A stretch of 64,000 nucleotides of DNA from a bacterium (GCA_021779375.1 JAJYAT010000001.1:40724-104723); one strand, 5' to 3'; positions 723 through 33,402 are shown, numbered from the stretch's first letter. The notes: a model not told the origin generated them from the letters alone. A program made the numbers and translations.

Positions 723-3700
723 ATTTCTCCCATTTTAGCGAATCGCAGTGCGAAGAGAATCGTCGCGAACAAGAGCAATATAATCGACCAACTTGAAGTC
801 GCTTCGGCACTTTGGAAATCAAGCGCGAGTAAATCAGCTGGCAAAAATTCTTGTGCCGTGTCGAACCCCGCAAGCGTGAGCGTGCCGTTTTCCGCCTGGA
901 CGAAAATACGGTAAGCATTGCCTTCGCGAAAAATTGCGCGCGCGAGCAGCGCCGCACTGCCCTCGCCGAAGCGCACGAAAATCTCACCATTTTGAGTCTG
1001 AATCACGAAACCGTCCTCGCCGCGAAACTGAATCGTGCCAAAAATTTTCTGCGTGTCGAAATCATTTGGTTTGTTCGGAGTCGCAATTTTGGTCTCACGC
1101 ATTTCGGTCGCATCGAAAGCTAACGCGATTCCTTCCGCCGGACTTTCGAATGAAAATACATCAACCGTCTTGCCGCGAAAATTCGCGATACGCACCGCTT
1201 CGCGCCCGGAATTATTGAGTGCGAGCTTCGTCAGGCTGCGCGGCAGAATTTGGAATTCGCCCGGCTGCAACACGACCGAATCCGGAATCGTGAAAGTTTT
1301 TTTGTTGTCGGAAATTTTCCAATTGCCGAGATTAACTGTGGTCGTGCCGAAATTTTGGAGCTCGATGAATTCAGCTTTGGCATCGTCACCAACTGGATTC
1401 GCGAGGACTTCGGAAATGCGAATCGTCGTGGATAAATTGCCATTCGCGTATTTGTGCGCCGATTTTCTGGCTCGGGAATTTTTGGACGTCGGCACGACTA
1501 GCAAATTTTCGGCACCGGGCGTCGGAGCGGCTGTTGCGATCAATTGCCCACCGACGAAGGCAAACGCGATACCCTCCTTTATTTTGGGATAAGTCAGTGA
1601 AGCAATCACGCGCTGAGTCGGCCAGGCGAGCGTCGCCGTCCCGCCGGAATTCGTCAGCGTAAGCCCAGTTTCAGCGTGTGTGAGCGCACGGAATTCTCCC
1701 GGTGCCAGCGTGAAATTAGTGGGAAAAATAAATTTTTTGCGACCGACCGAAAGTGTGAAGCCCGAAAGGTCCGCGACCGCTGAACCGAAATTTTGGAGTT
1801 CGATGAATTCAGCGTCACCATCCGCACCCGCCGGATTCGGCAAAACTTCGGAAATGCGCAGCGACTCCGCGAAAACTGGCGGCGCGAAATTTTCTGCCAG
1901 ACTGAAATTCAAAGCTTTTTGCGCGACACCCTCGAAGCCGCCTTGGTCGATGAGCTGCACGAAAAGATTGTGCTCGCCAGCCGGCAGCGCATGATCCAGC
2001 GCATAATTCCAGTCACCATTTTCATCGACTGGAACTTCGATGACGGCAAGCTCCGACTGGATGAAGATTCGCACGCGCCCGCCGGGCACACCGACGCCTG
2101 TCAGGAAAACACCATTTTCGTCGACCAAACTCGTGAATTGCGTACGCGCGATTAAGGCTAATTCGGCGCGGTATTTTTGCAATGCAGCGGGTGTCGCATC
2201 CACGACGAGCGGGTCAGAGCCATTTTCAATTTCAAAAAGATCAGGCAGTCCGTCACTATCCGTGTCGAAGTTTTCCGGATCGGTTTGATTTTCAATTTCA
2301 GCGATATCCGCGAGTCCGTCACCATCCGCATCCACGCTTTGCGGGAGAATTTTGTAGAAAATATTCGCGTGATCAGGTGTCGGAAGCTCTGTCTCCGCGA
2401 ACTTACCGCGGGGATTTCGGGCGAAGGCGACACCTTCCGCTAACTTCGGATAATCTAGCGAGTCGACTACCGCGCCATCGAAATCAAGCAAGGTGAATTG
2501 CGCAGCGGAATTACGCAACGACAGCAGCCCGCGAAAAGCGCGAAATTCGCCCGGCGCAAGTACAGTATTCTCTTCGAACTCGAAAGCGTCATCACCGACG
2601 ACGACAGTCCAGCCAAATAAATTGATCGACTTATCTCCGAGATTTACCAATTCAAACCATTCGTGGTCGGTATCCTTACCAATCGGATTCGGCAGAATTT
2701 CGGAAATACGAATGTCGCCCGTCGCAGTCGCAACTGGATCGAGCGGCGGATCTGGATTTTGGATTGTGAAGTCAGCGGCAGAATTAGTGTCAGCAGAATT
2801 TTGGCGCAGGAACACGCCACCGAGTGCCAGTCCGCGCGCATCGAGCAAACTTTCAGCCTCAGCTGAATTCCACTGCGACTCCAGGAATCTTGCCTGCAGT
2901 TGCTTAGATTGCGAAAGCGAAATATCGAACTCGCTCCGAATCGGCGGCACGGCTCGATTACTCCAGCCGACGAAATCAGCGGTCGCATTTTCGGAATCCT
3001 GGAGCGCGAGGAAATCATCACTGCCAACCAAGCCGCGCGCGGTCGCGTAAAAAATTCCATCCGCGAACTTCGCTTCAGGCGCATTGAAACTAATCTTGAG
3101 CGGCGCATCGACCGCAATCAGCGCCTCAGCCGGGAAAGTGAAAATTGCTTCTCCTAAGCTATTTTTGAGCGAGAAGCCACCGAGTGCGACCGGCGCCACG
3201 CAATCCAGACAAGTGATTTCGACGAAATCGCCCGTGGGATTTTTGGGTGCGACGGCGGAAATTTGGAAATGGAAATCACTCGCGCGCACTGGTCGCGGAG
3301 AGTTCTTACGTCCAAGTGTCGCGAAAATTGTCTTGAACCAATCCGCCACAGAATTGCTGTCTGACAAATCAGGATCGCGCGCAATCACAGTCTCACGCTC
3401 AATATCAGCTGAATCAATCGCATCCATCATTTCCGAAGAAATCCAGCCGCCACCTGCGACGATTTCGCGCAGATCCGCCTCCTCGCCTGACGACCATGCC
3501 CCGTTGCGATTTTCCCAAACGACAGCGTCTTCAATCGCACCGGTCGAATCACGCAGCGTCACCTGCTCATCCGTCGCAGTCAATCCGCTTCTGGCGGAGA
3601 AAATTTTGGTGAAACCGTCGCCGTGCCAGATATTTACGGGCGTCGCCGACTTGAATTCGAGTACGAGCAATTCACCCGTTTTTAGTTTGGTGTTTTGGGG

Positions 3701-9782: not shown

Positions 9783-9859
9783 CGGGGTGTGGCGAAGTTG
9801 GCTATCGCGCCTGGTTTGGGACCAGGAGGCCGGAGGTTCGAGTCCTCTCACCCCGACCA
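9783..9859 (+). tRNA. tRNA-Pro (anticodon UGG), CCA encoded
   Basis: Acceptor CGGGGTG/CACCCCG. D stem GCGA/TCGC. Anticodon stem CCTGG/CCAGG with loop TTTGGGA. T arm GGAGG-TTCGAGT-CCTCT. Discriminator A followed by CCA. Confidence 0.9.
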
Positions 9860-9962
9860 TTTCAGGCTTTCACAAGAGCTAAATGGTGTTTTCACCGCTT
9901 TTTTGTTATGCTTGACTTTTAAAATTTTGGGTGTTAAAATAACATCGAAATTAAAACCAAAT

Positions 9963-12368
9963 TTGAACGACCACAAACACAATTTCGGCCGAATCCTGGG
10001 GAAAATTTTGAACGTCGCCTCGCATGAAGCTCCCCGGGTCTTTTTCGCCTGGCTGCTGAAATTCTTTTTCATGATCGGTTTCACAGTCGGCTGGACGATG
10101 CTGACTGCGATGCTCGTCGGGCGTGTCGGCATCGCTTATCTCCCCTATTTGTACGTCGCCAATGCCATTCTCGTAATCGGCGGCACAATCTTTTTTGGTG
10201 AACTCGCGCACCGTTTCTCGAAAACAAAACTGATTTACACCACGATTGGCAGCGGGACGATTCTGCTCGGCGGCGCCTTCGCCGTTTTCCAGAATGCGGA
10301 AAATTTGTGGCTCTTCCTCGGTCTCGCGCTCGTCGCCGAATCGATTTTCTTCGCGCAGCTGAATATCTTGCTCGGACTTTTTATCGAAGATCTTTTTTCA
10401 CCGCTCGAAGGCAGCCGCGCCATCCCAATCATCGAGTCGAGCGAATATGTCGGCGGCATCGTCGGCGGTTTGCTCATCCTCGGCGGACTGAATTTCTTTC
10501 ACGCAGAAGCGATTGACTTGAGTTGGATTTGGATCGGCGCGATTGCGCTCATTTTCCCAGCGCTTTTCATTTTTAATCATTTTCGTCAGAAATTACCGAA
10601 GCTCGAATTTGCGGAGAAACCAGTGCAGCTTTCGAAATTCGAACAGTTTCACGAAGGTCAGAAGCAGATTCGCAAAATGCCCTTCCTGACCGGACTAGTC
10701 TTCGTCGTGCTACTGCAGTGGACCTTTCTCACGCTGCTGAATTTCCAATACACGAAAGCCGTCAACACGAATATCACGCACACGAGTGAGACGGTAAGCG
10801 CGGAAAATCACGCTGCCGCAAGCGAATCGCACGAAGATTTACTCACGCACGGTCTCGGAAAATTGCATGTCATCTTTTTCACGATTGCCTTTCTGACGCA
10901 AATTGTTTTGACGAGTCGTCTCATTGGTCGCTTCGGCATCGTGCGCACCTTGCGACTGCATCCGCTCGCAAGTTTTGGCAGTGCGCTTTTGATGATTGCG
11001 AAACCTGGATTCGGTTCGGCTGTTTTCGCCAAAGGCATGTTCGAATCGACAACTGGGATCTATACCGCCGCTTACCATTCGAGCTTTTATGCGCTGCGGG
11101 AAAAAATTCGCGGCAGCGTGAAGGAATTTTTGGAAGGTCTGATTCGCCCGGCAGGCGTCCTGCTCGGCACAGGAATTTTGATTCTGGGTGAAAAGTTTTT
11201 GAATGCGGAAAGTTTCCCGCTCGCGATAAATTGCGCCCTCGTCACCGCCGCAGCGACGATGAGCTTCTTGCTCTTCCGCCACCAGAAAAATTACACGAAA
11301 ATTCCCGCTGCGAATCTCAAGCTATTTGGCAACCATCCTGCCAAATTTCAGTCGATTGAGATTCTCGCGCAACCCGGTCATGACGGTGCCGCCGAAATTT
11401 TGGTCGAGAAATTGAGCGATGGCAGCGAATCGCCGTTTTTGAAAATCAAAATTCTGACAACGCTCGGACTGCTCTCCGATCCGCAAGCAGTGCCGGCGAT
11501 TTTGGAATGCTTCCGCGACTCGAGTGAAGAAGTCCGCCTCGCCGCCGTCGAAGCGCTCGCGGCTTTCAAAAATCTCGCGGAAAAAGGTTTCACACATCGT
11601 CGCGTGATCGACGCGCTGAAAGAACTTTTTGGCAGTGACAGCTCGCCGGAGCTGCGCTCGGCCATCGTGCGCGTCTTCGCCAATTTGCGCGAGGAAGAGG
11701 CAGTGCAATTCATCATCGCCGAACTGCAAAATTTGGAATCGCCGATTCGCGGCGACTGCGTCTATGTCTGCCGACAGTTCCAGGATCTCGGCATCACACA
11801 CTACATCGAGCCGTATTTGAAGTCGCCGAATCTCACGATTCGCGCGAATGCGCTGATTGCGCTCTGGCAATTCCAGGGCTACCGCCTGCGGCTTAATCGC
11901 CTGCTCGCAGAAATTCTCGAAGCAACCGACCGTGAATCGCGCAAAATTTCCACCCACTTGCTCGGCGAAATTCGCGCCCGCAATGAATTGCCACGACTCC
12001 TGAATCTGCTCGATGAGAATGACGATGAGCTGCGTTTGCTGGCTGCGCTCGCAATCGGAAAAATGGGAAACCCGATTGCGCACCATTTGATTGCCGAATT
12101 TATTTTGCATCCGAATCTCGAGCTTTCCGCGCATGCCAAAAAACAACTCGCGCATTTGCCGGAAAAAACCCGCAAGAGCGTAGAGAAAATCTTGCACCAC
12201 CATCTCTCGGCGAAATTAAACGGATTGCTCGCTGCCACCCACGCACGCTCCATCGAAAAAATCAGCGCCGAAACACTCACCCGCATTCGCCGCGTGTATG
12301 AATTAGCGGACGACTGGGAAGAAGTCGCGCGCGTCGACGCCGTCCTCGCCGGACGCGATTTTGAATAG
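9963..12368 (+). CDS. Fusion protein: N-terminal MFS/nucleotide-transporter(NTT/TLC)-like polytopic permease plus C-terminal HEAT (PBS-lyase type) repeat domain
   Basis: The track ORF (9789) starts inside tRNA-Pro, so the real start must be downstream. In-frame TTG occurs at 9963 or 10008, and ATG at 10071. The N-terminal half has about 11-12 hydrophobic helices (FFAWLLKFFFMIGFTVGWTMLTAMLVGR...). The C-terminal half has HEAT repeats (AVPAILECFRDSSEEVRLAAVEALAAF, ELRSAIVRVFANL, NLTIRANALIALWQF, ELRLLAALAIGKMGNP). Confidence 0.65.
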   Translation: MNDHKHNFGRILGKILNVASHEAPRVFFAWLLKFFFMIGFTVGWTMLTAMLVGRVGIAYLPYLYVANAILVIGGTIFFGELAHRFSKTKLIYTTIGSGTILLGGAFAVFQNAENLWLFLGLALVAESIFFAQLNILLGLFIEDLFSPLEGSRAIPIIESSEYVGGIVGGLLILGGLNFFHAEAIDLSWIWIGAIALIFPALFIFNHFRQKLPKLEFAEKPVQLSKFEQFHEGQKQIRKMPFLTGLVFVVLLQWTFLTLLNFQYTKAVNTNITHTSETVSAENHAAASESHEDLLTHGLGKLHVIFFTIAFLTQIVLTSRLIGRFGIVRTLRLHPLASFGSALLMIAKPGFGSAVFAKGMFESTTGIYTAAYHSSFYALREKIRGSVKEFLEGLIRPAGVLLGTGILILGEKFLNAESFPLAINCALVTAAATMSFLLFRHQKNYTKIPAANLKLFGNHPAKFQSIEILAQPGHDGAAEILVEKLSDGSESPFLKIKILTTLGLLSDPQAVPAILECFRDSSEEVRLAAVEALAAFKNLAEKGFTHRRVIDALKELFGSDSSPELRSAIVRVFANLREEEAVQFIIAELQNLESPIRGDCVYVCRQFQDLGITHYIEPYLKSPNLTIRANALIALWQFQGYRLRLNRLLAEILEATDRESRKISTHLLGEIRARNELPRLLNLLDENDDELRLLAALAIGKMGNPIAHHLIAEFILHPNLELSAHAKKQLAHLPEKTRKSVEKILHHHLSAKLNGLLAATHARSIEKISAETLTRIRRVYELADDWEEVARVDAVLAGRDFE

Positions 12369-12760: not shown

Positions 12761-12886
12761 CTTTCGGCTGGGCGAATAAAACTCTGTACTCCGCCCGTCC
12801 TCGTTGCGCCTAGCGCAGCGGGGACTTTATTTTGGCACTGGCGTGACGAATGAAAGTTTGGTGACCAGACGAATAGAGCTGCTAAA

Positions 12887-14425
12887 ATGAGGTCGAGTAT
12901 TCCAATTAAAATGTCGGAGCTGACAACTATTTTTTTAGCCAAAATTTCACTTGCCACGGTCGGTATCGGATTCGCTGCGTTATTTTATTTTTTCCGGAAA
13001 AACAAATCCTTCAAAAAAGTTTTGATTGGAATTTTCATCCCCTTCGTGATTTTAGCGTCTTGGGGCTTTTTAAATTTTGATAAGAATATCATTCGCACAG
13101 GCTACTGGGACATATATCATTATTATCTGAATGCGAAATATTTTGACGAGCTTGGATATTTCGACCTCTACCGCGCTTCGCTCGTCGCGAATGCGGAGAA
13201 TGGCGGACCATTTGAAAATGTGGCTAAAGTGCGCGACCTCAGCACGCAAATCCAAACAATTCCGGATAGTAGCTCCGCCGAAGCTGAGTCGATGCGCGCA
13301 AAATTTTCTCCGGCGCGCTGGGAGGAGTTTCGCGCCGACGTTAAATTTTTCTTTGAAAAACTGACTCCCGTCGTCCTCACCGACCGCGGCTACAACGCCT
13401 CGCCGACCTGGAATAAAACCGGCTCGCTAATCGCGAATGCGTTGCCGCTCACGAATCCGGCGACCATCCCAATCATCTATTCGCTCGACATTTTAATTCT
13501 CGTCGCAATCTTCGGTATTATCACTGCGTCTTTCGGAATCGTCCCCGCACTCTTTTTCGTACTATTGCTCGGCGTCAATCCGCTCGAAATGCGCCCGCTG
13601 CAATTCGCTTTTTTGCGACTGGATTGGCTGCTCGCACTCGTCGGCAGTATCGCCCTTTGGAGAAAACAAAAATTTGGCTTGTCCGGTGCACTGCTTGCAC
13701 TCTCCGCTTTGCTCCGCATATTCCCGGTTGTTTTGCTCACTGGGGCAATCGTACAGGCTGGTCTGGAATTCTGGCGCAAGCGAAAAATCTCACCCGCTTT
13801 CCAAAAGTTTTTCCTCGGCTTCGCCATCGCAGCACTCGTACTCTTACTTTACGGCAGCCTCAATCAAGCTAATCATTTGGATTTTTCGCGCTGGGTCGAC
13901 TTCGGTAAAAAAATTATCATCCACTCACAGACCGCCTCGAATCAACGCAGTGGCATCAATTACCTCATCCCCGATGCTATTGATTTTTTACGCCTGCCTG
14001 TGAAATTATTGATGCTTGGACTTTTCGCTTGGGCAATCCGCCGCGCGCCAAGTGAAAAATTAATTCCGCTCAGTTTGCTGCTAGTTCCGGTCGTGACGGC
14101 ACCCGCCTCGTACTATTTTTGCAGCGTCTCAGTCTTGGTCTTGGCTTTTGCCGACTTGGCGAAAAAAGAAAACGCTCTCGCGCTCAGCTGTATTTTGCTC
14201 GCTTTTATTTTGGAAACATTTGGCGTCATCTACGAAAATGTCTACCACAACTCCGACACGAGTTATTATTGGTCGGGGCTCTTCTTTATTTTGAGCGTAG
14301 CTTTGCTGTTTGTGGTCGCAAATGAAAAAAATACTCTCGACCCAATGGGTGCAGATAAAAAAATCAAATCTCTTTTTTCAAAAAATCCAAAGGCAGTAAA
14401 CAAAGTAAAATCCACCAAATTATAA
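12887..14425 (+). CDS. Polytopic membrane protein, GT-C-like (putative glycosyltransferase); paralogue of 14364-15944
   Basis: 512 aa with at least 10 TM helices. The first extracytoplasmic loop carries YWDIYHYYLNAKYFDELGYFDLY (a D..Y..........G..Y pattern, as in GT87/GT-C loop 1). RWEEFRADVKFFF, DRGYNASPTW and LRIFPV are shared with the paralogue. Confidence 0.5.
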   Translation: MRSSIPIKMSELTTIFLAKISLATVGIGFAALFYFFRKNKSFKKVLIGIFIPFVILASWGFLNFDKNIIRTGYWDIYHYYLNAKYFDELGYFDLYRASLVANAENGGPFENVAKVRDLSTQIQTIPDSSSAEAESMRAKFSPARWEEFRADVKFFFEKLTPVVLTDRGYNASPTWNKTGSLIANALPLTNPATIPIIYSLDILILVAIFGIITASFGIVPALFFVLLLGVNPLEMRPLQFAFLRLDWLLALVGSIALWRKQKFGLSGALLALSALLRIFPVVLLTGAIVQAGLEFWRKRKISPAFQKFFLGFAIAALVLLLYGSLNQANHLDFSRWVDFGKKIIIHSQTASNQRSGINYLIPDAIDFLRLPVKLLMLGLFAWAIRRAPSEKLIPLSLLLVPVVTAPASYYFCSVSVLVLAFADLAKKENALALSCILLAFILETFGVIYENVYHNSDTSYYWSGLFFILSVALLFVVANEKNTLDPMGADKKIKSLFSKNPKAVNKVKSTKL

Positions 14426-15944
14426 AAATCGCAAGCGCACAACAAGTGTAAAAATTTTGGATAATCCCGTCAGAAGACAGAAATGGGGCCAACCACGTAA
14501 AAATTAAAAAACCAAAAAGCCCAAGAGAGACCAAGTGTTTTCTCCAATTTTGTTTCTGAGAATAAAGAGCTAGCGGTATTAAAGACAGAAAAACAAAATA
14601 ATAATTTGCCGGCAGAGTAAAAAGAAAAATCAACGTTGTCCCGACTAGCAATGCACTTTCGAGCAAATTAATTTTGCGAGTTGCTGCGCAGGCCGCGGCC
14701 GTGATTAAAAAACTCAGGGGCAAAAATAACCACAATCGCGACTGCCACACCGCCCAAAGTTGGCGATTCCAGGCATCGAAAAGTCGCAGACCAGCCTCGC
14801 CGAAAAAATTCTGATTCGGCACCCAATCAGCGAAAGTTGCGATTTTTTTGAGACCGATGTGAAAAACAAAATAAACATCTTTATGTAACAAAATATGTTG
14901 AAAAAAATCTCGCCAAGCATCAAGACCAAAAATCAGCAAACTCAAGCTGCCGAGCGCAAATACCGCAACCGCTCCCCCAGCAACGAAATCGCGAAGCACC
15001 TTTTTGTTTTTACGGAAATCAAAAAGCAGCGCAACAACCACCCCGACCGCGAAAAAAAGCGGAAAAACTCGCAACATCGCACTAATCCCGAAGAAAAGAC
15101 CCGACCAAAAATAGCGCTTTTGGGAAATAAGGCTAAATCCGACAATCAAATTAAACAACCAAAAATAGCGCAGAAAAGCCCCGCCATTCCAAAAGTACCC
15201 CGCGATATAACTCACTCCAAAAATGACGACGAAACCGATAAGCGCGGTCATCCCAAAATTACGGAAAATCAAAAATGTAGCGGCGAGCAACAGTAAAATG
15301 TCGAGCAGCGGCAACAACAAGTAAGTTTGTGAGCTGAGTGGAATAAGATTGGAAAGGCTGCTTGAAAAAATGACCGAACTCGGCGGCGGATTAAAGCCGG
15401 CATCCTGAACTGCAGTATCCCACCACTCCGATGCGCCAATTGAGGCGAGAAAATTCAAATCGTTTTTGAATTCATCCCAGCGCTCCACCGTAAAATTTCT
15501 TTTAAAATTTTTATCGCAATCGCGCACTGCCTCATCATGCGAGATTGAGGTCAAGATATTGCGCAAGTTACGAACATAATCAATCGAAATCAATCTGCCT
15601 CGCTCCTCGTCACCAGCCGTGACACAATTGTATATTCCAAAATACCCTAGCTCTGAAAAATATTTACTACCAAGATAATAATGGTAAATTTCGTGCCAAT
15701 GGAAAGGTCTTTGTAGCTCCACCTTGCCTTCGCCATCTGGATTATCAACAAAAATCGAATGAAATTTCCAAAAATTAAAATAAACTGTCAGCGAAGTCAA
15801 AATAAAAGCCATCACGATTAAGGCGATTATTATTTTGGGAATCTGCTTTTTTTTATTTTGTAAAAATGCGAACCCTAAAGCCAAAAGCGGAAAGAGAATC
15901 AAAACTGAAATTGCGAGATAGGTTTTTTGATCCATCTCGAGCAA
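14364..15944 (-). CDS. Polytopic membrane protein, GT-C-like; paralogue of 12887-14425
   Basis: 526 aa. Shared motifs are HWHEIYHYYLGSKYFSELGYFGIY, RWDEFKNDLNFL, DAGFNPPPS, LLDILLLLA and LRVFPL. The 3' end overlaps the convergent paralogue by 62 nt. It starts 1 nt after the upstream gene's stop (TTG 15944; alternative ATG 15935). Confidence 0.5.
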   Translation of the reverse strand: MLEMDQKTYLAISVLILFPLLALGFAFLQNKKKQIPKIIIALIVMAFILTSLTVYFNFWKFHSIFVDNPDGEGKVELQRPFHWHEIYHYYLGSKYFSELGYFGIYNCVTAGDEERGRLISIDYVRNLRNILTSISHDEAVRDCDKNFKRNFTVERWDEFKNDLNFLASIGASEWWDTAVQDAGFNPPPSSVIFSSSLSNLIPLSSQTYLLLPLLDILLLLAATFLIFRNFGMTALIGFVVIFGVSYIAGYFWNGGAFLRYFWLFNLIVGFSLISQKRYFWSGLFFGISAMLRVFPLFFAVGVVVALLFDFRKNKKVLRDFVAGGAVAVFALGSLSLLIFGLDAWRDFFQHILLHKDVYFVFHIGLKKIATFADWVPNQNFFGEAGLRLFDAWNRQLWAVWQSRLWLFLPLSFLITAAACAATRKINLLESALLVGTTLIFLFTLPANYYFVFLSLIPLALYSQKQNWRKHLVSLGLFGFLIFTWLAPFLSSDGIIQNFYTCCALAIFIIWWILLCLLPLDFLKKEI

Positions 15945-15945
15945 A

Positions 15946-16938
15946 TCAAATCACGCCAGGGATGAAGCGCCAACGCACTTTCTTGGCATAGCGGCGGTAA
16001 TCCGGATCAGCACTCAGGTGTCGCTCTTCCGTCAGCGCGCGCAGAATATAAATCGCGTTCCAGCCGATTAGGGCGAGCAAAGTGCCGAGGCTGAGAAATG
16101 GCAGGAACTCAAACCACCACGCTAAATTTTTGGCGATATAGGCTGGATGTCGTACGAAACGATAAGGTCCGTATGAAACAATTCCGCGATTCGTGAGATT
16201 ACTCGCCTTGAAACCGAGCGCCAGCGTCGCCCAAACATAAATCAAGAAGGCAATCAACCCGGCGATTTTGAGCGAATCGACAAGCCAAACATTTTCGAAG
16301 AGTGTGAAGTTTCTGGTAAGCGGGATGAAATTATCCATGATGGAATTGAAGGGCGGATAGCAGATGAGCGCAACCACCCAGCCCGAAACAAAGGGATCGA
16401 CTGACTTGATACGATTACGAAGAAAACTAAACTCAAAGGTATAAGCGAACGCAAACACGACAGTGTCAATTAAGAAAATTGCCTGATAAATAAAGTCGTA
16501 ACCCCACTGCCAAAAAAATGAGATGAAACTCTGGCTGGGATCAGCCGTACGCCATAGTTCATGTAAATTTTGAAAATGCTGAAAAAAGAAGTTCAGCATC
16601 AGAGGCAAGAAGAAAAATTTGACGAGGTAAGAGAGAGCCGCTGTCCGCGCCGCTGCGCGATTTTCCGGCGAGCGTTTTCGACAAAAAATGAAGTTAAATA
16701 AAACTACTAGCTTGTCGCGTGCGTAATCCGCCTCTGTGCAAAAAAAATGGAAACGCACGAGGTAATAAGGCAAACCAAGCACCAGATAAGCCAGAAACAA
16801 AAAATTAAAAACCGCAATTGTATTGCCATTTAAAAAATTACGAAAGTAGCCGTGGAAGGAATAAATCGCTAAAAGAACCGCAAAAATGAGGAGATTGCCG
16901 AGATAATGCGCGACCGTTCGTTGTAAAGTTTTGAGCAT
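15946..16938 (-). CDS. ICMT/PEMT-family membrane methyltransferase
   Basis: 330 aa, polytopic. The C-terminal signature NRGIVSYGPYRFVRHPAYIAKNLAWWFE is typical of the isoprenylcysteine carboxyl / phospholipid methyltransferase family. Its ATG overlaps the upstream stop (TGATG). Confidence 0.65.
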   Translation of the reverse strand: MLKTLQRTVAHYLGNLLIFAVLLAIYSFHGYFRNFLNGNTIAVFNFLFLAYLVLGLPYYLVRFHFFCTEADYARDKLVVLFNFIFCRKRSPENRAAARTAALSYLVKFFFLPLMLNFFFQHFQNLHELWRTADPSQSFISFFWQWGYDFIYQAIFLIDTVVFAFAYTFEFSFLRNRIKSVDPFVSGWVVALICYPPFNSIMDNFIPLTRNFTLFENVWLVDSLKIAGLIAFLIYVWATLALGFKASNLTNRGIVSYGPYRFVRHPAYIAKNLAWWFEFLPFLSLGTLLALIGWNAIYILRALTEERHLSADPDYRRYAKKVRWRFIPGVI

Positions 16939-19673
16939 CAGCGTCCGATTTCATTTTGAAACAGAGTCGCGAGACTATCGAATCCGGGTGGCGGATTATT
17001 TTGGATGCGCGAATCGTAGCGCAGTACGACGGCTTCAGGCGCAGTCGTCCCGTTGGCTGATTCCGGTCTCGGCAATTCATCGTAAGCAATTTCAGAGAAA
17101 GGACGCGCCGTATTATCACAAGAGGAAATTTTCCAGTTGGACGAGCCGTACGGTGAAAGCGCGGAGGTCAGATTGCCACAGCGGAAATACTCGCGCAGAT
17201 ACGCAAGGTCGTATTCGACCGCCTCGCGCCAAGTCGGATCTGGGAAACCACCGCCAATTTCGTAGGGACGCCGCGAAGCACAATTCGGATTACCGTAAGC
17301 CGGCCAATTCGGATTGACCGCACCACCGATGGAATTCAGCGAGAGAATCGTCCCTTCCCAAAAAATCTGATTCTTCAGAATTTGATACCACTCTGTACCT
17401 TCTCGATTGGTTGGTAAATGCCAATTCGCGTCAGTCGATTTCACACTACCCTCGAGATAATAAGCACCGACAACATTCGTCGGGTCAGGATGCAGGAAAG
17501 CGTCTCCGCCGTAAGTCGCTCCGCAAACTTTGTTTTGAAGCAAAATCACACCGAGACTCGCGTTGGAATTGGGTGGATAAACGAGGTTGTCTTTGATGCG
17601 CAAATCCGCTCCGCGAATAACGAGCGTCACCGGATAAGGCGGCAGCACGATACTGTCACCATCGGGATTGTCGAGCGTCACCGAGCCGCCACTCGGCGGA
17701 TCGAAGAAAATCACATTGCCGCGGGCGCAATCGGAAAGGTACGCCGCCGCACCATTGACTGGGTCGTGAGAAGTATTGGAATAATCGATGTACTGAGTCG
17801 CATGATTGAGCGCATCCAGCGAGCTCAGCACGACTCCTTTACCTGTCGCGTCACAACCGCAAAGCTCGGTCATACGACCATTCGCACAGGTAAACGATTG
17901 ACACTCGCCGGGCTCATGGAATGGCTGCAAAATCTGTGCAATCCGCGGATTCATCAAGGTACGCGCTTCGGGATAATTCGTGTCGCACACACTGGCGTTG
18001 TCCGCCACGGTCGCCAGCGCCTTGGAGCAATTCACACCCGTCCCGCTAATCGGCTGAACGCGCGTGTCGAAATAACAAGTCTGATCAAACGGATACGGCG
18101 TCGTTGTACGCACATTGTTGTAGCCAATAATCGCACCAAACCAGTTGTAGATTGGCACTCTCCGATAAATATAAGTCGAGATTTGAATTTTATAAGCTGA
18201 TTTGTACTGCGCCGGTAAATACATTTTGTTACCAACGATTTGAAAACTACTCTGCGGGAGACAAGCCGACCAGCCCGCGCCACGAATATCATAGACATTG
18301 TTGGCGACGATTGGCCGACTCGCGACCTGCACACAAACATCTGCTTTATTGAGTGAGCAAGTGCCTGTATGAGTAATGTTCACTGGTACCACTACTTTGC
18401 CATTTTCAATCGGCAGCGTCGTGAGATAGCAATCCATCGGCAAAGGCTTGCATTCGATATCGGCAGTACAACCCCCGCCACCGGACGAGCTACCAGAGCT
18501 GTCCCCGCCAGACGAGCTGCCCGAGCTGTACCCGCCAGACGAGCTACCAGAGCTGCCCCCGCTGGAACCAGAGGAACCAGAGGAACCACTTGAGCTACCT
18601 GAAGATGAACCTGACGACGATCCGCTGGAAGAACCAGACGAGGAACCACTTGAGCTACCTGAAGATGAACCTGACGACGATCCGCTGGAAGAACCAGACG
18701 AGGAACCAGAGGAACCGCTGGAAGAACTACCTTCACCGTCACCGCCAGGGCAAGTACAATCGCTCAAGCATTTACCGGAACAAGCGGCGTCAGATGTACC
18801 ATCGCAAACTTCGTAGACTCCAGCGTCGTTTGGTCTCTGGACGATGTTGTCACCGCAGCGAGTCAAGGAACTCAGCGGCTTACAAGTACAATCACTCCTA
18901 CAAAGACCCAGTGAACAGATACCAGGACAAGCGGCATCATCAGCTCCATCACAGATTTCGTAAACTCCAGCACTGTTTGGTCTTTGGACAATTCCGTCTC
19001 CGCAATAAGTCGATGCCGCTGGTTTGCAAGTGCAATCACTTTGGCAGATGCCACTTGCACAAGAACCACTGCTTTTGTCGCACTCTTCATTAAATCCCTG
19101 ATCGTTCGGTGTTTGTTTTATCCCATCACCGCAAATTTTTGGTGTCACCGGCTTGCAGGTGCAATCACTTTGGCAGATGCCACTAGCGCAAGCAGCGTGG
19201 GAAGTGCCATCACAAACCTCTGGTGATTGAATAGTGTTGTCACCGCAAATTGGCTTCTGAGTACAAGTCACATCACTGCAAATCGAAGCATAGGGACTAA
19301 GGTTAACTTTACATTCTGGATTATCCAAAGTATAAGAATCAATCGTCACGCTCGAACAGATTTTGCTGCCATTGGGCGCATCTGCCGCTGCAGCTACTGA
19401 AAAAGCAACTGGCTTGGTCCCGCCTGCCGGCAAGTGGACGCCGAGATTAAAAGATTGAGTCAGCGGATTCGCAGCCCCTACGCCCCAGATTTTTTTTGTC
19501 ACAGCATTGATTGTCGCTCCACAATCGCCGCTCACATAAAGGCTGTAATTGTGATAAACCGTCCCGCCACACTCCACCGAGGCAAGCGCTACTCGCGCAC
19601 AGAGAAATAGCAAAGCCGGAATCACCAGAAGCACCAGATATTTCCGCGCGTAACTATTGAGAAACTTCAGCAT
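16938..19673 (-). CDS. Secreted 911-aa protein: N-terminal domain, four Cys-rich repeats (CGDG..Q.P...CDG....C..G.C.SDCTCKP), ~95-aa Ser/Gly linker, ~500-aa C-terminal domain of unknown fold
   Basis: Signal/anchor KYLVLLVIPALLFLCARVALA. Repeats include CGDNTIQSPEVCDGTSHAACASGICQSDCTCKP, CGDGIKQTPNDQGFNEECDKSSGSCASGICQSDCTCKP, CGDGIVQRPNSAGVYEICDGADDAAC...CRSDCTCKP and CGDNIVQRPNDAGVYEVCDGTSDAACSGKCLSDCTC. These resemble the myxococcal Cys-rich repeat type. A run of SSGSSGSSSG... follows. Confidence 0.75.
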   Translation of the reverse strand: MLKFLNSYARKYLVLLVIPALLFLCARVALASVECGGTVYHNYSLYVSGDCGATINAVTKKIWGVGAANPLTQSFNLGVHLPAGGTKPVAFSVAAAADAPNGSKICSSVTIDSYTLDNPECKVNLSPYASICSDVTCTQKPICGDNTIQSPEVCDGTSHAACASGICQSDCTCKPVTPKICGDGIKQTPNDQGFNEECDKSSGSCASGICQSDCTCKPAASTYCGDGIVQRPNSAGVYEICDGADDAACPGICSLGLCRSDCTCKPLSSLTRCGDNIVQRPNDAGVYEVCDGTSDAACSGKCLSDCTCPGGDGEGSSSSGSSGSSSGSSSGSSSGSSSGSSSGSSSGSSSGSSSGSSSGSSSGSSGSSGSSGGSSGSSSGGYSSGSSSGGDSSGSSSGGGGCTADIECKPLPMDCYLTTLPIENGKVVVPVNITHTGTCSLNKADVCVQVASRPIVANNVYDIRGAGWSACLPQSSFQIVGNKMYLPAQYKSAYKIQISTYIYRRVPIYNWFGAIIGYNNVRTTTPYPFDQTCYFDTRVQPISGTGVNCSKALATVADNASVCDTNYPEARTLMNPRIAQILQPFHEPGECQSFTCANGRMTELCGCDATGKGVVLSSLDALNHATQYIDYSNTSHDPVNGAAAYLSDCARGNVIFFDPPSGGSVTLDNPDGDSIVLPPYPVTLVIRGADLRIKDNLVYPPNSNASLGVILLQNKVCGATYGGDAFLHPDPTNVVGAYYLEGSVKSTDANWHLPTNREGTEWYQILKNQIFWEGTILSLNSIGGAVNPNWPAYGNPNCASRRPYEIGGGFPDPTWREAVEYDLAYLREYFRCGNLTSALSPYGSSNWKISSCDNTARPFSEIAYDELPRPESANGTTAPEAVVLRYDSRIQNNPPPGFDSLATLFQNEIGR
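18581..18700. repeat. Perfect 60-nt tandem duplication within the Ser/Gly-coding tract (whole low-complexity tract about 18472-18747)
   Basis: 18581-18640 and 18641-18700 are identical (aggaaccacttgagctacctgaagatgaacctgacgacgatccgctggaagaaccagacg). A partial third unit follows. Confidence 0.9.
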
Positions 19674-19713
19674 AAAATTTAATTTGAATAGGGTTTACTT
19701 TAACCTAAAAAAC

Positions 19714-19872
19714 CTATTCGAGCAAAATTGCTTGACTGTCGATATCAGCAGAATTGCTGACTTCACCCTTGGCTGAGATTCCTGGTAACGGACGACTCAA
19801 AAAAGCATCTGCCAAAACCAGGGCGAGCGCGACTGCGATGAAAGCAGTAGCGAAAATAATAATCTTTTTCAC
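19714..19872 (-). CDS. 52-aa secreted/anchored mini-protein (below the track's length cut-off)
   Basis: GTG start. Product: MKKIIIFATAFIAVALALVLADAFLSRPLPGISAKGEVSNSADIDSQAILLE*. It has a classic n-h-c signal peptide, fills the gap between two co-directional genes, and shares its last 4 residues and a 13-nt stretch (ATTTTGCTCGAAT) covering the ILLE codons with the upstream 989-aa gene. Confidence 0.5.
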   Translation of the reverse strand: MKKIIIFATAFIAVALALVLADAFLSRPLPGISAKGEVSNSADIDSQAILLE

Positions 19873-19907
19873 GCGGTGATTTTAGCCTATCCGCGCCGAA
19901 ATTAAAA

Positions 19908-22877
19908 TTATTCGAGCAAAATCGTGCCGTCATCCACTGGAGGCAAATCTGTTTCTCCATCTGGCTTGACTCCGATTTCAGTCTCGCAAGGCCCGAAAAA
20001 ATCGGCAATTGTTTTCCAACCCGGAATCAAAATCTGAACTTCATTCAGCGGAAGACTGACTTTGTTCGCACCTTTTTCCGGCATTTGACCTTTCAGGACG
20101 AAATTGCGGAAATTGTCGAAAGATTTCTGATCTTTGAAAATCGCTTCGAATTTCGCTTTCGCCTCTGGCGAAGCATTCGCTTTCCCGAGCCATTCGTCGC
20201 GCACATTAGAATATTTACCAAGTGCGTCAGCACGACCAGTGCCAGTCCGAATGTAAGTCAAATAACCCGTGAACAAAGACGCCACCTCAAGCGTCAAGCT
20301 CAGCGGTGAATGCACATTGATCAACTCTTTCCTCGGTGCAGATTGGTTTTCCCAAATCGCCATTTTCGGCTGATGTGCTTTGTCTTTGCTAAAAGTCGGC
20401 GGAATGAAAACAGCATCGCCGATGAAAAGCGGCGATCGCGCAGCGTTGATTTTGTCCTCATCGTAAAGCACCATCTCAATCGCATCTTTCGCAGTGACAC
20501 CAATGAAGTTTCCTGGAACATTATATTTATCGAGAATTTTTTCCAATTTCGGATTACCAAGATCGGCAATCTTGATTTTGTCCAATCCGCCAGAATCATT
20601 TTGGAGTAATCTAGCCAGATAAAATGCGTCCTCTTCTTTGTCCATTTTCTTTTCCAAATCAGCAATATCTTTGCAATCCCAATCGTAAAGCAATTTAGCT
20701 GCTTTAAACATGCGCTCATCTGCACCGCGGTCTGCCCACTTTTTCTGCCAAGTGTTTTTGGCTTCGAGTCTTTTTGCAAACGAATTAATTGTTTTGCCAT
20801 CGCCAGCCGCTGTAATTGTTTTTTCAAGGTCAGCAGCCATGATAGGAAGTGCCTTTTCGTCTAAGTTTTTTTCAACATATTTCGCGAGCGACTCACGCGA
20901 CTGACCCAAAACATCATCGACATTTTCGGCGATAAATTTATGTGGTTTCGTGTCGAGACGTTTGCGGGCGTTGAGATATTCACTCTCGCGCAGTGTCTTG
21001 CCGCGCAAATCGACAATCGCCGGATCTGGAAGATTGTTAAATTCCGAGCCCGGCTTGAACCAATCCATGACGCGAGGTATGAGCGTCCAACCATCCGGCA
21101 CATTCTTGAAATACTGAACTGCGTTGATTGGGACAGCTTTCGGTTTTTCAGGTTGCGGAGCTGGCGCAGGCGCGACGGGCGGCTTCAGCGCTTCTAATTT
21201 TTTAATGACAACCGCCGGATTTTCGCAGTTCGGGATTTCGATCTGCGCGATCTTGTAATTCGCGACTTCATCCGGACTAATCGTGTCTTGTTTCAAATAT
21301 TTTTTAAGAATATTTGCCTTATCCTTTTTGTCAGAAATTTCAAGATATTTGTAAATGTACGTCTCCTTCGGGCGCAGCGTCTGCGGCGCGTCGATGTTAT
21401 TTTCCCAAGTGTCGCCATTCGATTGGTCGATGTACGCTTCGAGTTTGCCACCATGTGCTTTCTGATCCACACGCAGCATGAAAACCTCACCACCACTCAA
21501 AATGTCTTTGACCTCTTGCTTGTGTTCATTCGGCTTGGCACTGAGTTTTTCCGCGCTGGAGTCGGAATACAAAACATTCCACCTCATCCCAAGTCCAACC
21601 TTTTCAGCAAAAAGTTCTTCGACTTTTTTACCGCCCGACAATCCCTGGACCTGATTGTTGAGCGCCATTTCTCGTTCTGGAGAATTACCTTTCGCGACGC
21701 GACCATAGCTCACATCGAGCACTTTGAAAGTCTCGATTAATTCCGCCTTTTTGGCTGGCGACAATTTAGACTCCTTCACCTGTTGTTCAAATTGCCGTGA
21801 GCTGCCGAGACGCAATTTTTGCATCTTCGCTGGGTTGTTCAAATCTTCTGGCTTCAATGCGAATAGTGCCGCGACCTCAGCCGGCACGCCTTTTTTCGTG
21901 CTAGGTTTCGCGCTAAGGTCTACGACGTTTGATTTCACGCCATCGACATAACTCATGGCAACCCAGCCGCCTTTGTCTAATTTTCCCCACCATCGTTTTT
22001 CTCCTTTACCAAATTTACCGGATTTAACTTGGACAATCCTAATTTCCTCGCCGACTGCCACTAAACCGGTTCTCTTACCGTCTTCGCTCAAGACTTTGAG
22101 GGCTTCTTTCGCGCGGAATTTACCTGGCACGAAATTCACCGGCTCATTACTTTCTGCGCCGTAAACTGCCTCGAGATCTCTCTGATATCTCGCTGCGCCA
22201 CCCTCCAATAAATATTTGACTGAAGACGCTCCTGGATTTTTTGGAGCAGCATCGTGAATATCAGACTCTTGAATAGCAGCTTTTGCCGGAGCAGCTTTTT
22301 CAGCTGGCGCGAAAGTAAATCCGTCTTTGATAACTTCAGAAAATGGTCGCGCTGTCGGAATCTTACCTTTCTCATAAAGATTGGCATCGACCTGAAAACC
22401 CGCAGAATTAAAAATTCTTTCTAATTGATCAGGCGTAACTTTTTCGCCCGTAAGTTTGTTGTGAGCCAGCACTAATTTGACCGCACTCTCACTCGCGTGC
22501 ACGAGCATGAAACGCCCTTTCTCAATCTGAACCGCTGTTCCCACTTCTTGATCGTGTTTTTCAATCAAGCCATTGACCATCTCATCCATCTGCGCGTCGG
22601 TCAGTTCGATGTTTTGGGCTTTTTCAATCGCCTCTTTCAATAATTTAATCGCGTCTTCGGATTCTTTTGTCCGCTTCTGGCGCTCGAGAGTTTTCAGTTC
22701 TTGGAGTTTTTCCGCCAAGGATTTTTTTTCCTGCGAATTAATCTTGCCAAGCTCCTTCCCCGTCGCCGAATCTTGCGGCGCATCAAGACGCTTGTTAAAC
22801 GGCAACTCCACTCTGATTAGCCGCGCTTCGTGCAGCGCGCAATCAATCGGCGCGAAGGTCTGGATTTTGTTTTGCAT
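19908..22877 (-). CDS. Lys-rich 989-aa protein of unknown function (no signal peptide, no TM segment)
   Basis: Long uninterrupted ORF. Coiled-coil-like N-terminus (KSLAEKLQELKTLERQKRTKESEDAIKLLKEAIEKAQ). A possible SH3b-like stretch (GEKRWWGKLDKGGWVAMSYV). A Pro-rich linker (KPPVAPAPAPQPEKPK). I recognise no catalytic motif. Confidence 0.7.
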   Translation of the reverse strand: MQNKIQTFAPIDCALHEARLIRVELPFNKRLDAPQDSATGKELGKINSQEKKSLAEKLQELKTLERQKRTKESEDAIKLLKEAIEKAQNIELTDAQMDEMVNGLIEKHDQEVGTAVQIEKGRFMLVHASESAVKLVLAHNKLTGEKVTPDQLERIFNSAGFQVDANLYEKGKIPTARPFSEVIKDGFTFAPAEKAAPAKAAIQESDIHDAAPKNPGASSVKYLLEGGAARYQRDLEAVYGAESNEPVNFVPGKFRAKEALKVLSEDGKRTGLVAVGEEIRIVQVKSGKFGKGEKRWWGKLDKGGWVAMSYVDGVKSNVVDLSAKPSTKKGVPAEVAALFALKPEDLNNPAKMQKLRLGSSRQFEQQVKESKLSPAKKAELIETFKVLDVSYGRVAKGNSPEREMALNNQVQGLSGGKKVEELFAEKVGLGMRWNVLYSDSSAEKLSAKPNEHKQEVKDILSGGEVFMLRVDQKAHGGKLEAYIDQSNGDTWENNIDAPQTLRPKETYIYKYLEISDKKDKANILKKYLKQDTISPDEVANYKIAQIEIPNCENPAVVIKKLEALKPPVAPAPAPQPEKPKAVPINAVQYFKNVPDGWTLIPRVMDWFKPGSEFNNLPDPAIVDLRGKTLRESEYLNARKRLDTKPHKFIAENVDDVLGQSRESLAKYVEKNLDEKALPIMAADLEKTITAAGDGKTINSFAKRLEAKNTWQKKWADRGADERMFKAAKLLYDWDCKDIADLEKKMDKEEDAFYLARLLQNDSGGLDKIKIADLGNPKLEKILDKYNVPGNFIGVTAKDAIEMVLYDEDKINAARSPLFIGDAVFIPPTFSKDKAHQPKMAIWENQSAPRKELINVHSPLSLTLEVASLFTGYLTYIRTGTGRADALGKYSNVRDEWLGKANASPEAKAKFEAIFKDQKSFDNFRNFVLKGQMPEKGANKVSLPLNEVQILIPGWKTIADFFGPCETEIGVKPDGETDLPPVDDGTILLE

Positions 22878-22947
22878 TTTGAGAGAGTTAATTTTTATTT
22901 TTAATTTTAAATCTTTTTATTTTACCATTTTTTATTAAAAAATACAA

Positions 22948-23640
22948 CTAGCGATACAAAAGTCCCTGCACCGCCGCGACGATAATGTACGCGAGCAAAA
23001 CGATGACCAGTCCGGCGATTGAGTAAATAATCATCGTCTTGGCTTTTTGGGCGTCGTTGTCATTGCCCGCCGCAGTGACGAGTCGGAAACCGCCAATCAC
23101 GAGAAAAACGAAAGCCGTCAGACCGACCATTTTGGCTGCCAGATCAATCACCTTATCCATGAAAATCTGCAAATTTCCTGCACGATCTTGGTTATTGTTC
23201 ACATTAAGAATCTTCTTCGTATCGACGCTTTTGAATCTATTAACTCTTTGCTGCAACTCAGTGACTTTTGCTGAGAGCTCGTTTTTAGATTTCGACAGCG
23301 CCGCGATAATCTCTAGAGGATCGGTCTCCCCTGTCTTGGTGTTACCCGTACCGTAAATCCCATCACAAGTCGTCTGTGTCCCGTCAGGACCGATGATACT
23401 GCATCTAAACCACAAATCAGTGGCGAAATCACAAGCACCAGAACAATCTGAAAAATTATTCAGAATGGTTGTGGCTGCCTGGAGTTCCGCAGTTTTCGCC
23501 GCTAGCGCAGCATTGCAGTTCACCTCGGTCGCACACTCATCCACATCAGCCGTGGCAGCAGATGCAACACCGCCGAAAAGCAGCGCGACGACTGGCAGCA
23601 CGAGTAAAGCCGTGAAGAATGTTTGGATTTTTGTTTTCAA
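22948..23640 (-). CDS. T4SS-type pilin (TrbC/VirB2-like, T4SS_pilin-type C-terminal hairpin) with a ~150-aa Cys-containing N-terminal extension
   Basis: TTG start. Signal peptide MKTKIQTFFTALLVLPVVALLFGGVASA. The C-terminal 70 aa, VIDLAAKMVGLTAFVFLVIGGFRLVTAAGNDNDAQKAKTMIIYSIAGLVIVLLAYIIVAAVQGLL, form the two-helix hairpin with the G..(K/R)...S/A.G....AK motif typical of CPR/Firmicute T4SS pilins. Confidence 0.7.
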   Translation of the reverse strand: MKTKIQTFFTALLVLPVVALLFGGVASAATADVDECATEVNCNAALAAKTAELQAATTILNNFSDCSGACDFATDLWFRCSIIGPDGTQTTCDGIYGTGNTKTGETDPLEIIAALSKSKNELSAKVTELQQRVNRFKSVDTKKILNVNNNQDRAGNLQIFMDKVIDLAAKMVGLTAFVFLVIGGFRLVTAAGNDNDAQKAKTMIIYSIAGLVIVLLAYIIVAAVQGLLYR

Positions 23641-23696
23641 AATTGGTTTTAAATCGTCTCATTTTAGCAAATTTCAAGCTAAAATTCAATCTGAAA

Positions 23697-33369: not shown

Positions 33370-33402
33370 ACTGCTAAAATCCCAGTAATTTAATTACCAG
33401 CC

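Follow-up and report, generated by a model that had tools for sequence, protein, structure and literature searches.

Six consecutive open reading frames (ORFs) on the minus strand of a 64 kb stretch of bacterial DNA (GCA_021779375.1, JAJYAT010000001.1:40724-104723; hereafter the window, with positions counted from its first nucleotide) begin with a gene for a pilin of the type IV secretion system (T4SS) family and continue with genes for a large Lys-rich protein (the big protein), a membrane mini-protein, a secreted Cys-repeat protein, a methyltransferase-like protein and a GT-C-like protein. In this study, the cluster was compared with its counterparts in related genomes. We put at about even odds (a probability of roughly 0.5) the reading that it is a conserved, fast-diverging envelope module, confined to Peribacterales-type candidate phyla radiation (CPR) bacteria, which is organized in two adjacent transcription units and operates by tail-mediated docking. 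As judged by comparison of the loci, the core is conserved and diverges fast, two promoters are present, and the big protein and the mini-protein match in their C-terminal tails within a genome; in addition, the coupling of the secreted-protein gene to the methyltransferase-like gene is kept, and the GT-C-like genes lie outside the module. The features of the locus are as follows.

23661-23689, minus strand: promoter-like element of the pilin gene; TTGAAT, 17 nucleotides (nt), extended -10 TGCTAAAAT at 23661-23669, followed after 5 nt by GATTTAAA.
22948-23640, minus strand: VirB2-like pilin, 230 amino acids (aa); PF18895 match, signal peptide and two-helix hairpin.
22906-22947, minus strand: internal promoter-like element in the spacer between the pilin and big-protein genes; TTGTAT (22947-22942), 17 nt, TGGTAAAAT (22927-22919), N5, GATTTAAA.
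19908-22877, minus strand: big protein, 989 aa; Lys-rich, no signal peptide or transmembrane (TM) segment, N-terminus MQNKIQTF..., tail ILLE.
19714-19872, minus strand: mini-protein, 52 aa; TM/signal segment, acidic, predicted external tail of ~27 aa, ending in ILLE.
16938-19673, minus strand: secreted protein, 911 aa; signal peptide, variable N-domain, four Cys repeats, Ser/Gly linker and C-domain.
18484-18725, minus strand: tandem DNA repeats encoding the Ser/Gly linker, with a perfect 2 x 60-nt repeat at 18580-18699.
15946-16938, minus strand: ICMT/PEMT-superfamily methyltransferase-like protein, 330 aa, polytopic; coupled by TGATG to the secreted-protein gene.
14364-15944, minus strand: GT-C-like polytopic protein, 526 aa; weak GT87 similarity, lineage-specific addition at the 3' end of the operon.
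12887-14425, plus strand: convergent GT-C-like paralogue; own promoter at 12861-12888 after a strong terminator at 12797-12825, not in the module.

Conserved core, matched tails and promoters

The ORF call placed the six minus-strand ORFs where the preliminary description, which had been made from the window by itself, had put them, with agreeing translations and with gaps of 70, 35, 40, -1 and 1 nt calculated from the ORF coordinates; direct reading of the sequence showed that the 911-aa and 330-aa genes overlap by TGATG and that a TGA-T-TTG junction precedes the 526-aa gene. Such tight co-directional spacing is commonplace in bacteria, and the cluster is more than a chance arrangement because of the comparative data, not because of its spacing. 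The 23 loci fetched represent 13 distinct places, onto which the proteins of the window were mapped. In every contig that is long enough (13 distinct loci), the genes for the pilin, the big protein, a TM mini-protein and the Cys-repeat secreted protein occur in this order, so that the proposed check on gene-neighbourhood conservation came out positive. The core order is kept down to about 28% identity and with changed flanks: L016 has TrpRS directly next to the pilin gene and a HIT gene after the secreted-protein gene, with neither a CCA gene nor an ICMT-like gene, and L023 has a RimK-like gene upstream.

By itself, the order of the genes is weak evidence, because the entire neighbourhood is syntenic; in most loci, it is collinear both on one side (CCA-adding enzyme, TrpRS, XerC, LemA-TPM, TatD and Fpg) and on the other (STAS, MiaB-like, FtsW and a giant protein with lamin-tail domains, LTD). 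The matched tails and the kept translational coupling between the secreted-protein and ICMT-like genes are stronger links. The 1-nt overlap, or a 1-nt gap, at the latter junction recurs in L002, L017 and L021; an ICMT/PEMT-like gene lies 3' of the secreted-protein gene in L002/3, L009, L017, L021 and L022 and is absent in L004 and L016. Furthermore, the closest relative (L001) is 97% identical to the window in TrpRS and 96% in the CCA-adding enzyme, as against 81% in the pilin, 78% in the big protein and 39-55% in the N-terminal part of the secreted protein; by these identities, the module diverges much faster than its housekeeping neighbours. Homologues of the module proteins came only from metagenome-assembled genomes labelled Peribacteraceae, 'Gracilibacteria' or Patescibacteria, and the host is thus taken to be a Peribacterales-type (Peregrinibacteria/'Gracilibacteria') CPR bacterium with the standard genetic code.

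One link within the cluster concerns the big protein and the mini-protein. The charge distribution of the mini-protein predicts an N-in/C-out topology, by which its tail would be extracytoplasmic. In the window, the C-terminal residues are ...DDGTILLE in the big protein (19908-19925, minus strand) and ...DSQAILLE in the mini-protein (19714-19731, minus strand), and the last three to five residues of the two proteins agree within a genome and vary between genomes, as in the following pairs (big protein/mini-protein).

Window: ILLE/ILLE
L001: IVLD/ILLD
L019: VVLD/ILLD
L021: VVLD/VVLD
L006: IPLE/VLLE
L002: DVVF/DVVF
L004: PDKF/QDDF
L009: GGGA/EGGL
L013: GGGI/TGGL
L017: GGTI/SGRI
L022: TGEF/GGLF
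L023: VDVI/LEVI

An exact permutation test, in which the tails were re-paired among nine lineage representatives (an earlier version used 7 lineages), gave p = 1.4e-5, 3.9e-5 and 1.2e-4 for the last 3, 4 and 5 residues, respectively, and the Gly-rich pairs among them could partly reflect composition. The cognate mini-protein was the best match for seven of the nine big proteins over the last 3 residues and for six over the last 4. When all ORFs of the window were checked, no other was found to end in an ILLE-type tail. The matching residues are encoded by different synonymous codons in L001, L002 and L006, which argues against simple gene conversion of the tails. At the level of the encoded sequences, the co-varying tails establish a tight linkage between the big protein and the mini-protein. 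In L017, the position of the mini-protein gene (L017:4502-4885) is occupied by a gene for a 127-aa protein with a TM segment and an extra domain of ~80 aa, and its end, GSGRI, resembles the GAGGTI of the L017 big protein.

The big-protein slot of L021 (L021:5406-9008) encodes a 1200-aa protein without detectable homology to the 989-aa family, with which it has in common only the first 25 residues (hhalign probability 84%) and the architecture of the tail; its tail, VVLD, is that of its own mini-protein. L021 is close to the window, with housekeeping genes 81-85% identical (TrpRS 85%), and the comparison identifies the change in the slot as a cassette-like replacement.

An extended -10 element is found upstream of the pilin gene in 12 of the 13 loci and between the pilin and big-protein genes in 11, where the consensus is TTGnnT-17-TGnTAAAAT; the corresponding counts are two of 13 for the spacer between the big-protein and mini-protein genes and one of 13 for that between the mini-protein and secreted-protein genes. 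The kept promoter in the spacer after the pilin gene contradicts, at the first junction, the earlier suggestion of a single transcription unit. With promoters 5' of the pilin gene and 5' of the big-protein gene, the cluster has two or more promoters and transcription units. The second of at least two units would be an operon of the big-protein, mini-protein, secreted-protein and methyltransferase-like genes (with the GT-C-like gene where present), and read-through from the pilin gene is possible. The motif TGnTAWAAT is enriched in the window (10 matches compared with 3.15 expected); its copies lie mostly just 5' of ORF starts, and the two inside annotated ORFs fall in ORFs whose true starts are probably later. 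It is probably the general extended -10 element of the genome. The longer arrangement TGnTAAAAT-N5-GATTTAAA occurs at two sites of the window only (23648-23669 and 22906-22927, minus strand; 0.05 expected), and this promoter-leader signature, common to the pilin and big-protein genes, could be due to duplication of a 5' region or to joint regulation. A candidate terminator after the pilin gene, a hairpin at 22975-22950 that overlaps the stop codon, was rejected, being no better than shuffled sequences (z = -0.78) and not kept in relatives. Many genes of the window have a -10 element just 13-31 nt before the start codon, that is, very short leaders.

Proteins of the module and its surroundings

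The module proteins were scanned with Pfam, NCBIfam, PHROGs and PADLOC, and only the pilin, the PEMT/ICMT-like protein and, weakly, the GT87-like protein were matched. The earlier identification of the pilin is confirmed by PF18895 (T4SS_pilin), with 36.6 bits against a gathering cut-off of 26.6 (E = 4.7e-9, residues 158-223); the score for the NCBIfam Mbov_0395 pilin-like model, 27.1, lies below its cut-off of 40. A hydropathy scan located hydrophobic segments at residues 8-26, 164-182 and 203-221, corresponding to a signal segment and two helices. Across 12 orthologues the hairpin (residues ~158-223) is near-invariant, and the N-terminal extension of ~125 aa is hypervariable, Cys-containing and of coiled-coil type. 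The pilin may act at a T4SS channel, either polymerizing into it or working with it. It is the only PF18895-type pilin encoded in the window, and a PDB sequence search with it gave no usable match. The pilin and the big protein have similar N-termini (LKTKIQTFF and MQNKIQTFA, respectively), a likeness dropped as evidence because it is not consistently kept in relatives.

A Pfam scan of the window ORFs of at least 150 aa revealed no VirB4, VirB6 or VirD4, in agreement with the preliminary description. Similarly, the genes called within 10 kb in relatives, like these ORFs, included none for VirB4, TrsD, VirB3/PrgI, VirB6/PrgH or a coupling protein, and no T4SS adjoins the cluster there. The view that a lone T4SS pilin is unusual did not hold, since many Patescibacteria have VirB2-like pilin genes at a distance from virB4 (PMC12102498). 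This 2025 survey of patescibacterial T4SSs (Microb Genom), which used PF18895 and other VirB2/pilin profiles, reported VirB2-like genes in 1,948 VirB4-containing assemblies and near virB4 in only 1,135, with the T4SS parts of the class Gracilibacteria mostly not clustered with virB4 (PMC12102498). The present pilin resembles those VirB2-like pilins (PF18895/PF04956) in its Pfam family, signal peptide, two-helix hairpin, chromosomal location and frequent distance from virB4; variable VirB2-like paralogues have been proposed to act in host interaction (PMC12102498). Unlike the VirB2-like arrays, it is encoded by a single gene and carries a hypervariable Cys/coiled-coil extension of ~125 aa before the hairpin, and, unlike the pilins as described in that survey, it is invariably followed by the big-protein, mini-protein and secreted-protein genes.

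The description of the 989-aa protein also stands: it has no TM or signal-like segment (0 hydrophobic segments in the hydropathy scan, compared with one each in the mini-protein and the 911-aa protein), contains 11.5% Lys and has no Pfam match. Its N-terminus (MQNKIQTF...) is conserved, and after a conserved Cys its C-terminus forms a disordered Pro-rich tail ending in ILLE. The family is tiny, with 10 matches among 5.8e9 proteins; a profile hidden Markov model of the family, run against 1.84e9 representatives, found 13 and no relative outside the clade. PDB sequence searches with the alignment of this family (A1) and with a second alignment (A2) gave nothing usable. An AlphaFold2 (AF2) model from a 10-sequence alignment had a predicted local distance difference test score (pLDDT) of 59 and a predicted template modelling score (pTM) of 0.34. 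Foldseek comparison of this model gave local SH3b-like matches at residues ~250-320 (probability 0.47-0.98, E ~0.8-4), namely to the teichoic-acid-binding domain of SlpA (8alu, 0.98), 7qfg (0.94), LytB (4q2w, 0.85) and an endolysin cell-wall-binding domain; SH3b is a cell-wall-binding fold. The possibility that the 989-aa protein is a VirB4-like ATPase was rejected on the lack of a profile match to any ATPase family in Pfam and NCBIfam; no GxxxxGK[ST] P-loop was noticed on reading the sequence, for which no motif search was run.

For the 911-aa protein, the signal peptide and the Ser/Gly linker of the original assignment were found, whereas the Cys repeats of the window had no significant match to DUF4215/TIGR02232 (E = 0.59 and 10.9 bits for DUF4215, PF13948; none for TIGR02232 at E <= 0.1). 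Orthologues at the equivalent position do match DUF4215 (P0020, 1.1e-18; P0018, 7.1e-10), and the repeats of the window are therefore regarded, by orthology only, as degenerate relatives. Because the Ser/Gly linker dominated the matches in a search with the full-length protein, only the C-domain was then used as query. This domain of ~510 aa contains the motif ...NPPPGF... and is conserved (53-84% identity in the main clade), in contrast to the variable N-domain, repeats and linker. Its AF2 model is poor (pLDDT 50), and the Ig-like/antibody matches that it gave in Foldseek were set aside as uninformative. The tandem repeats that encode the linker suggest recent expansion or contraction of the length of the stalk; relatives carry S/T/G-rich or (DG)n linkers at this place. 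A distant C-domain paralogue of 608 aa (L015:10001-11827; 33% identity over 45% of the domain) lies in an unrelated context with no pilin nearby, by which the C-domain family reaches beyond the module. The protein resembles the large, strain-variable, Cys-rich extracellular proteins with Myxococcus-type repeats that were described in Ca. Peribacter riflensis in 2016 (PeerJ), for which a function in attachment was proposed (PMC4736985); they are from the same clade and, likewise, are large and exported and vary by strain. That study treats them as a category, with no operon context, pilin linkage, coupled methyltransferase or tail-matched mini-protein (PMC4736985). Neither the operon nor the tail match is described in PMC12102498 or PMC4736985, and, as the preliminary description had supposed, no described system with this composition was found in the literature.

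The ICMT/PEMT assignment of the 330-aa protein holds in part: its score for PEMT is just above the cut-off (26.0 versus 25), but that for ICMT is below it (20.9 versus 24), as are those for DUF1295 (19.4 versus 20.4) and the NCBIfam isopcys_mtase model (25.5 versus 160). The protein has at least six hydrophobic segments, and all profile matches fall within residues 235-328. Like eukaryotic and archaeal ICMT and bacterial PEMT enzymes, it is polytopic, and its C-terminal ~90 residues match the PEMT/ICMT/DUF1295 core; unlike them, it scores at or below the family cut-offs (just above for PEMT), its N-terminal ~230 residues are unmatched and no CaaX-type substrate is evident. A PDB sequence search with it gave no match. 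No module protein has a CaaX-like C-terminus, and a link between this enzyme and CaaX-type processing remains speculative in view of this and of the loci (L004 and L016) that have no such enzyme.

The 526-aa protein, described as GT-C-like, is polytopic, with ~10-12 hydrophobic segments; its GT87 score falls just below the cut-off (24.1 bits versus 25, E = 3.6e-5). Its plus-strand paralogue, noted earlier, was confirmed (26% identity, E = 1e-28). This 512-aa protein likewise has ~10-12 hydrophobic segments and no GT87 match, and the two have in common the conserved loop motif W-[HD]-[EI]-IYHYYL..KYF.ELGYF. A PDB sequence search with the GT-C-like protein gave no match. The convergent genes overlap by 62 nt at their 3' ends (14364-14425). 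The hairpin at 12797-12825, after the STAS gene, is terminator-like, with a 13-bp stem and a T-run, and the true start of the 512-aa gene is probably the ATG at 12912, since the extended -10 element overlaps the listed ATG. The GT-C-like gene was not upheld as part of the module: it is absent from every relative that covers the junction (L002/3, L009, L017, L021 and L022), in which the methyltransferase gene is directly followed by convergent STAS or MFS-HEAT genes. On this comparison, the two GT-C-like genes are a lineage-specific insertion, seen in this window only.

The remainder of the window is ordinary housekeeping chromosome. Its genes encode FtsW, a MiaB-like enzyme, TrpRS, a XerC-like recombinase, LemA-TPM, TatD, Fpg and a HisA/F-like protein; RuvA, PurU, UppP, a class II aminoacyl-tRNA synthetase, NDK and EF-G; and GlmS, RecR, GlnA, Adk, AlaRS and CTP synthase. 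A giant 1949-aa protein (671-6520, minus strand) with six LTD domains and PKD/Big domains is another giant surface protein of the clade and also neighbours the module in L004, L021 and L022. The tRNA-Pro(TGG) gene at 9783-9859 overlaps the listed start of an 859-aa ORF (9789-12368), which must therefore begin later (extended -10 element at 9932-9940). The product of this ORF, an unusual fusion of a major facilitator superfamily (MFS) transporter and HEAT repeats, is encoded next to the module in L009, L017 and L022 as well. A 606-aa ORF (33403-35223, plus strand) has no Pfam or NCBIfam match and is preceded by an extended -10 element at 33372-33380.

Interpretation and alternative explanations

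In the proposed model, the first unit would supply the pilin from its own strong promoter, with the conserved hairpin in the membrane and the hypervariable N-terminal extension exposed. From the second promoter would come the signal-less big protein of ~1000 aa, the single-pass mini-protein, the Sec-exported protein with its Cys repeats, flexible Ser/Gly stalk and conserved C-domain, and the coupled ICMT/PEMT-like methyltransferase, to which the GT-C-like gene would have been appended in this genome. The products would act at the envelope or cell surface, which is the best supported step. Both tails would bind the same acceptor site, either the C-domain of the secreted protein or the pilin; the mini-protein would tether or prime this acceptor at the membrane as an anchored placeholder, and the variable big protein would dock at the surface. 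The big protein would leave by a non-Sec route, plausibly a T4SS that includes the pilin and has its other genes elsewhere in the genome; the methyltransferase would modify a lipid or carboxyl group needed for anchoring; and the assembly would function in attaching to a host cell or in making contact with it. We infer these steps with support that falls from action at the envelope or surface, through a single tail acceptor and non-Sec export of the big protein, to modification by the methyltransferase.

The docking logic would resemble the donor-strand exchange of chaperone-usher and type V pili, in that two polypeptides with equivalent short terminal segments could occupy one acceptor groove in turn. 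This is an analogy of logic only: unlike those pili, the present system has no sequence or fold homology to them and no usher or chaperone, its envelope is of the monoderm type and its acceptor is hypothetical. A more particular and hitherto undescribed mechanism of surface display or export in CPR bacteria is doubtful. In it, the tail would be a lineage-specific C-terminal 'address tag' on a swappable cargo of ~1000 aa, directing this cargo to a pilin- or adhesin-based docking site for which the membrane mini-protein would be a placeholder or competitor, and the ICMT-like enzyme may modify the carboxyl end of the tag.

Several points weigh against the envelope-module reading. The separate promoter of the pilin gene weakens the tie of the pilin to the other genes, and the loci are all from a single order, in which synteny is strong in general. 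The tail pattern was seen before it was tested (post hoc); no clear match of the tails is present in L011 (VISP/NEII) and L016 (SSQI/PGDV), and the big proteins of L018 and L020 continue for a short stretch beyond the tail motif. The acceptor site of the tails is hypothetical, and the big protein would have to be extracellular despite having no signal peptide. Foldseek searches against the PDB gave no global match for the big-protein model and weak Ig-like matches only for the C-domain model, by which no fold or function is assignable to either, and the SH3b-like matches have poor E-values, come from a mediocre model (mean pLDDT 59) and are accompanied by no Pfam SH3 match.

An alternative is that the cluster belongs to a dispersed T4SS, with the pilin as the VirB2 of a system located elsewhere, the big protein as its substrate or effector, the tail as the secretion signal, and the secreted protein and methyltransferase as accessories. 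T4SS substrates classically carry C-terminal signals, and both the PF18895 match above the cut-off and the combination of a missing Sec signal with an SH3b-like domain in the big protein would fit. So would the slot swap in L021, which, in the manner of polymorphic effectors, retains the tail and the first 25 aa, and the scattering of T4SS parts in Gracilibacteria, where VirB2-like genes are often away from virB4 (PMC12102498). The likeness to polymorphic effector or toxin loci lies in this non-homologous 1200-aa body behind the same 25 residues, with the cognate tail kept; unlike such loci, the present cluster gave no sign of a toxin domain, an immunity gene or a known trafficking domain, and there is one swap only. 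Against a dispersed T4SS, the matching tail of the mini-protein is predicted to lie outside the cytoplasm, but it is on the cytoplasmic side that coupling proteins recognize their signals; T4SS genes turned up neither in the 64 kb (ORFs of at least 150 aa) nor, in relatives, within 10 kb; and the tail differs radically by lineage (acidic, aromatic or Gly-rich), unlike known T4SS signals. On balance, a dispersed T4SS appears unlikely.

Mere synteny, with the pilin, big-protein, secreted-protein and ICMT-like genes as neighbours of unrelated functions, is suggested by the collinearity of the entire neighbourhood in most loci and by the separate conserved promoter of the pilin gene. It would leave unexplained why the core stays together when its flanks change (L016 and L023), why the tails of the big protein and mini-protein co-vary, why the secreted-protein/ICMT-like coupling is kept and why all members diverge faster than their neighbours, and we regard it as distinctly unlikely. 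Least probable, and indeed improbable, is a by-product at the DNA level without protein function (a duplicated 3' gene end homogenized by gene conversion, or an RNA or termination element common to the two): the window has the same four codons in both tails, a 19-nt direct repeat spans both stop regions and the mini-protein ectodomain resembles the big-protein tail in length and composition, but synonymous codons differ in L001, L002 and L006, the match holds across nine lineages with very different motifs, and the sequence 3' of the two stop codons is not conserved between the two genes.

The envelope-module reading thus keeps part of what had been proposed as a host-contact or surface module: the genes are real, their order is kept and their products are fast-evolving proteins of envelope or surface type, but the membership of the GT-C-like gene, the single unit and the novelty of the lone pilin have fallen away. 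The cluster sits within known themes, namely the VirB2-like pilins of CPR bacteria and the Cys-rich surface proteins of Peribacteria, and is not demonstrably a new kind of system; the matched tails and the slot swap lift it above the average hypothetical operon.

CPR bacteria presumably live attached to host cells, and to our knowledge their contact molecules are almost unknown outside Saccharibacteria. The module is a compact, conserved and fast-evolving candidate for host contact in Peribacterales. The matched tails provide a concrete molecular handle on which component binds the tail, and the big protein's cassette-like exchange points to differences between strains in what the module presents. 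If tail docking is not true, the cluster would be an uncharacterized lineage-specific operon, of which CPR genomes hold many; if it is true, ultra-small bacteria of monoderm-like type would be seen to assemble surface proteins in a new way.

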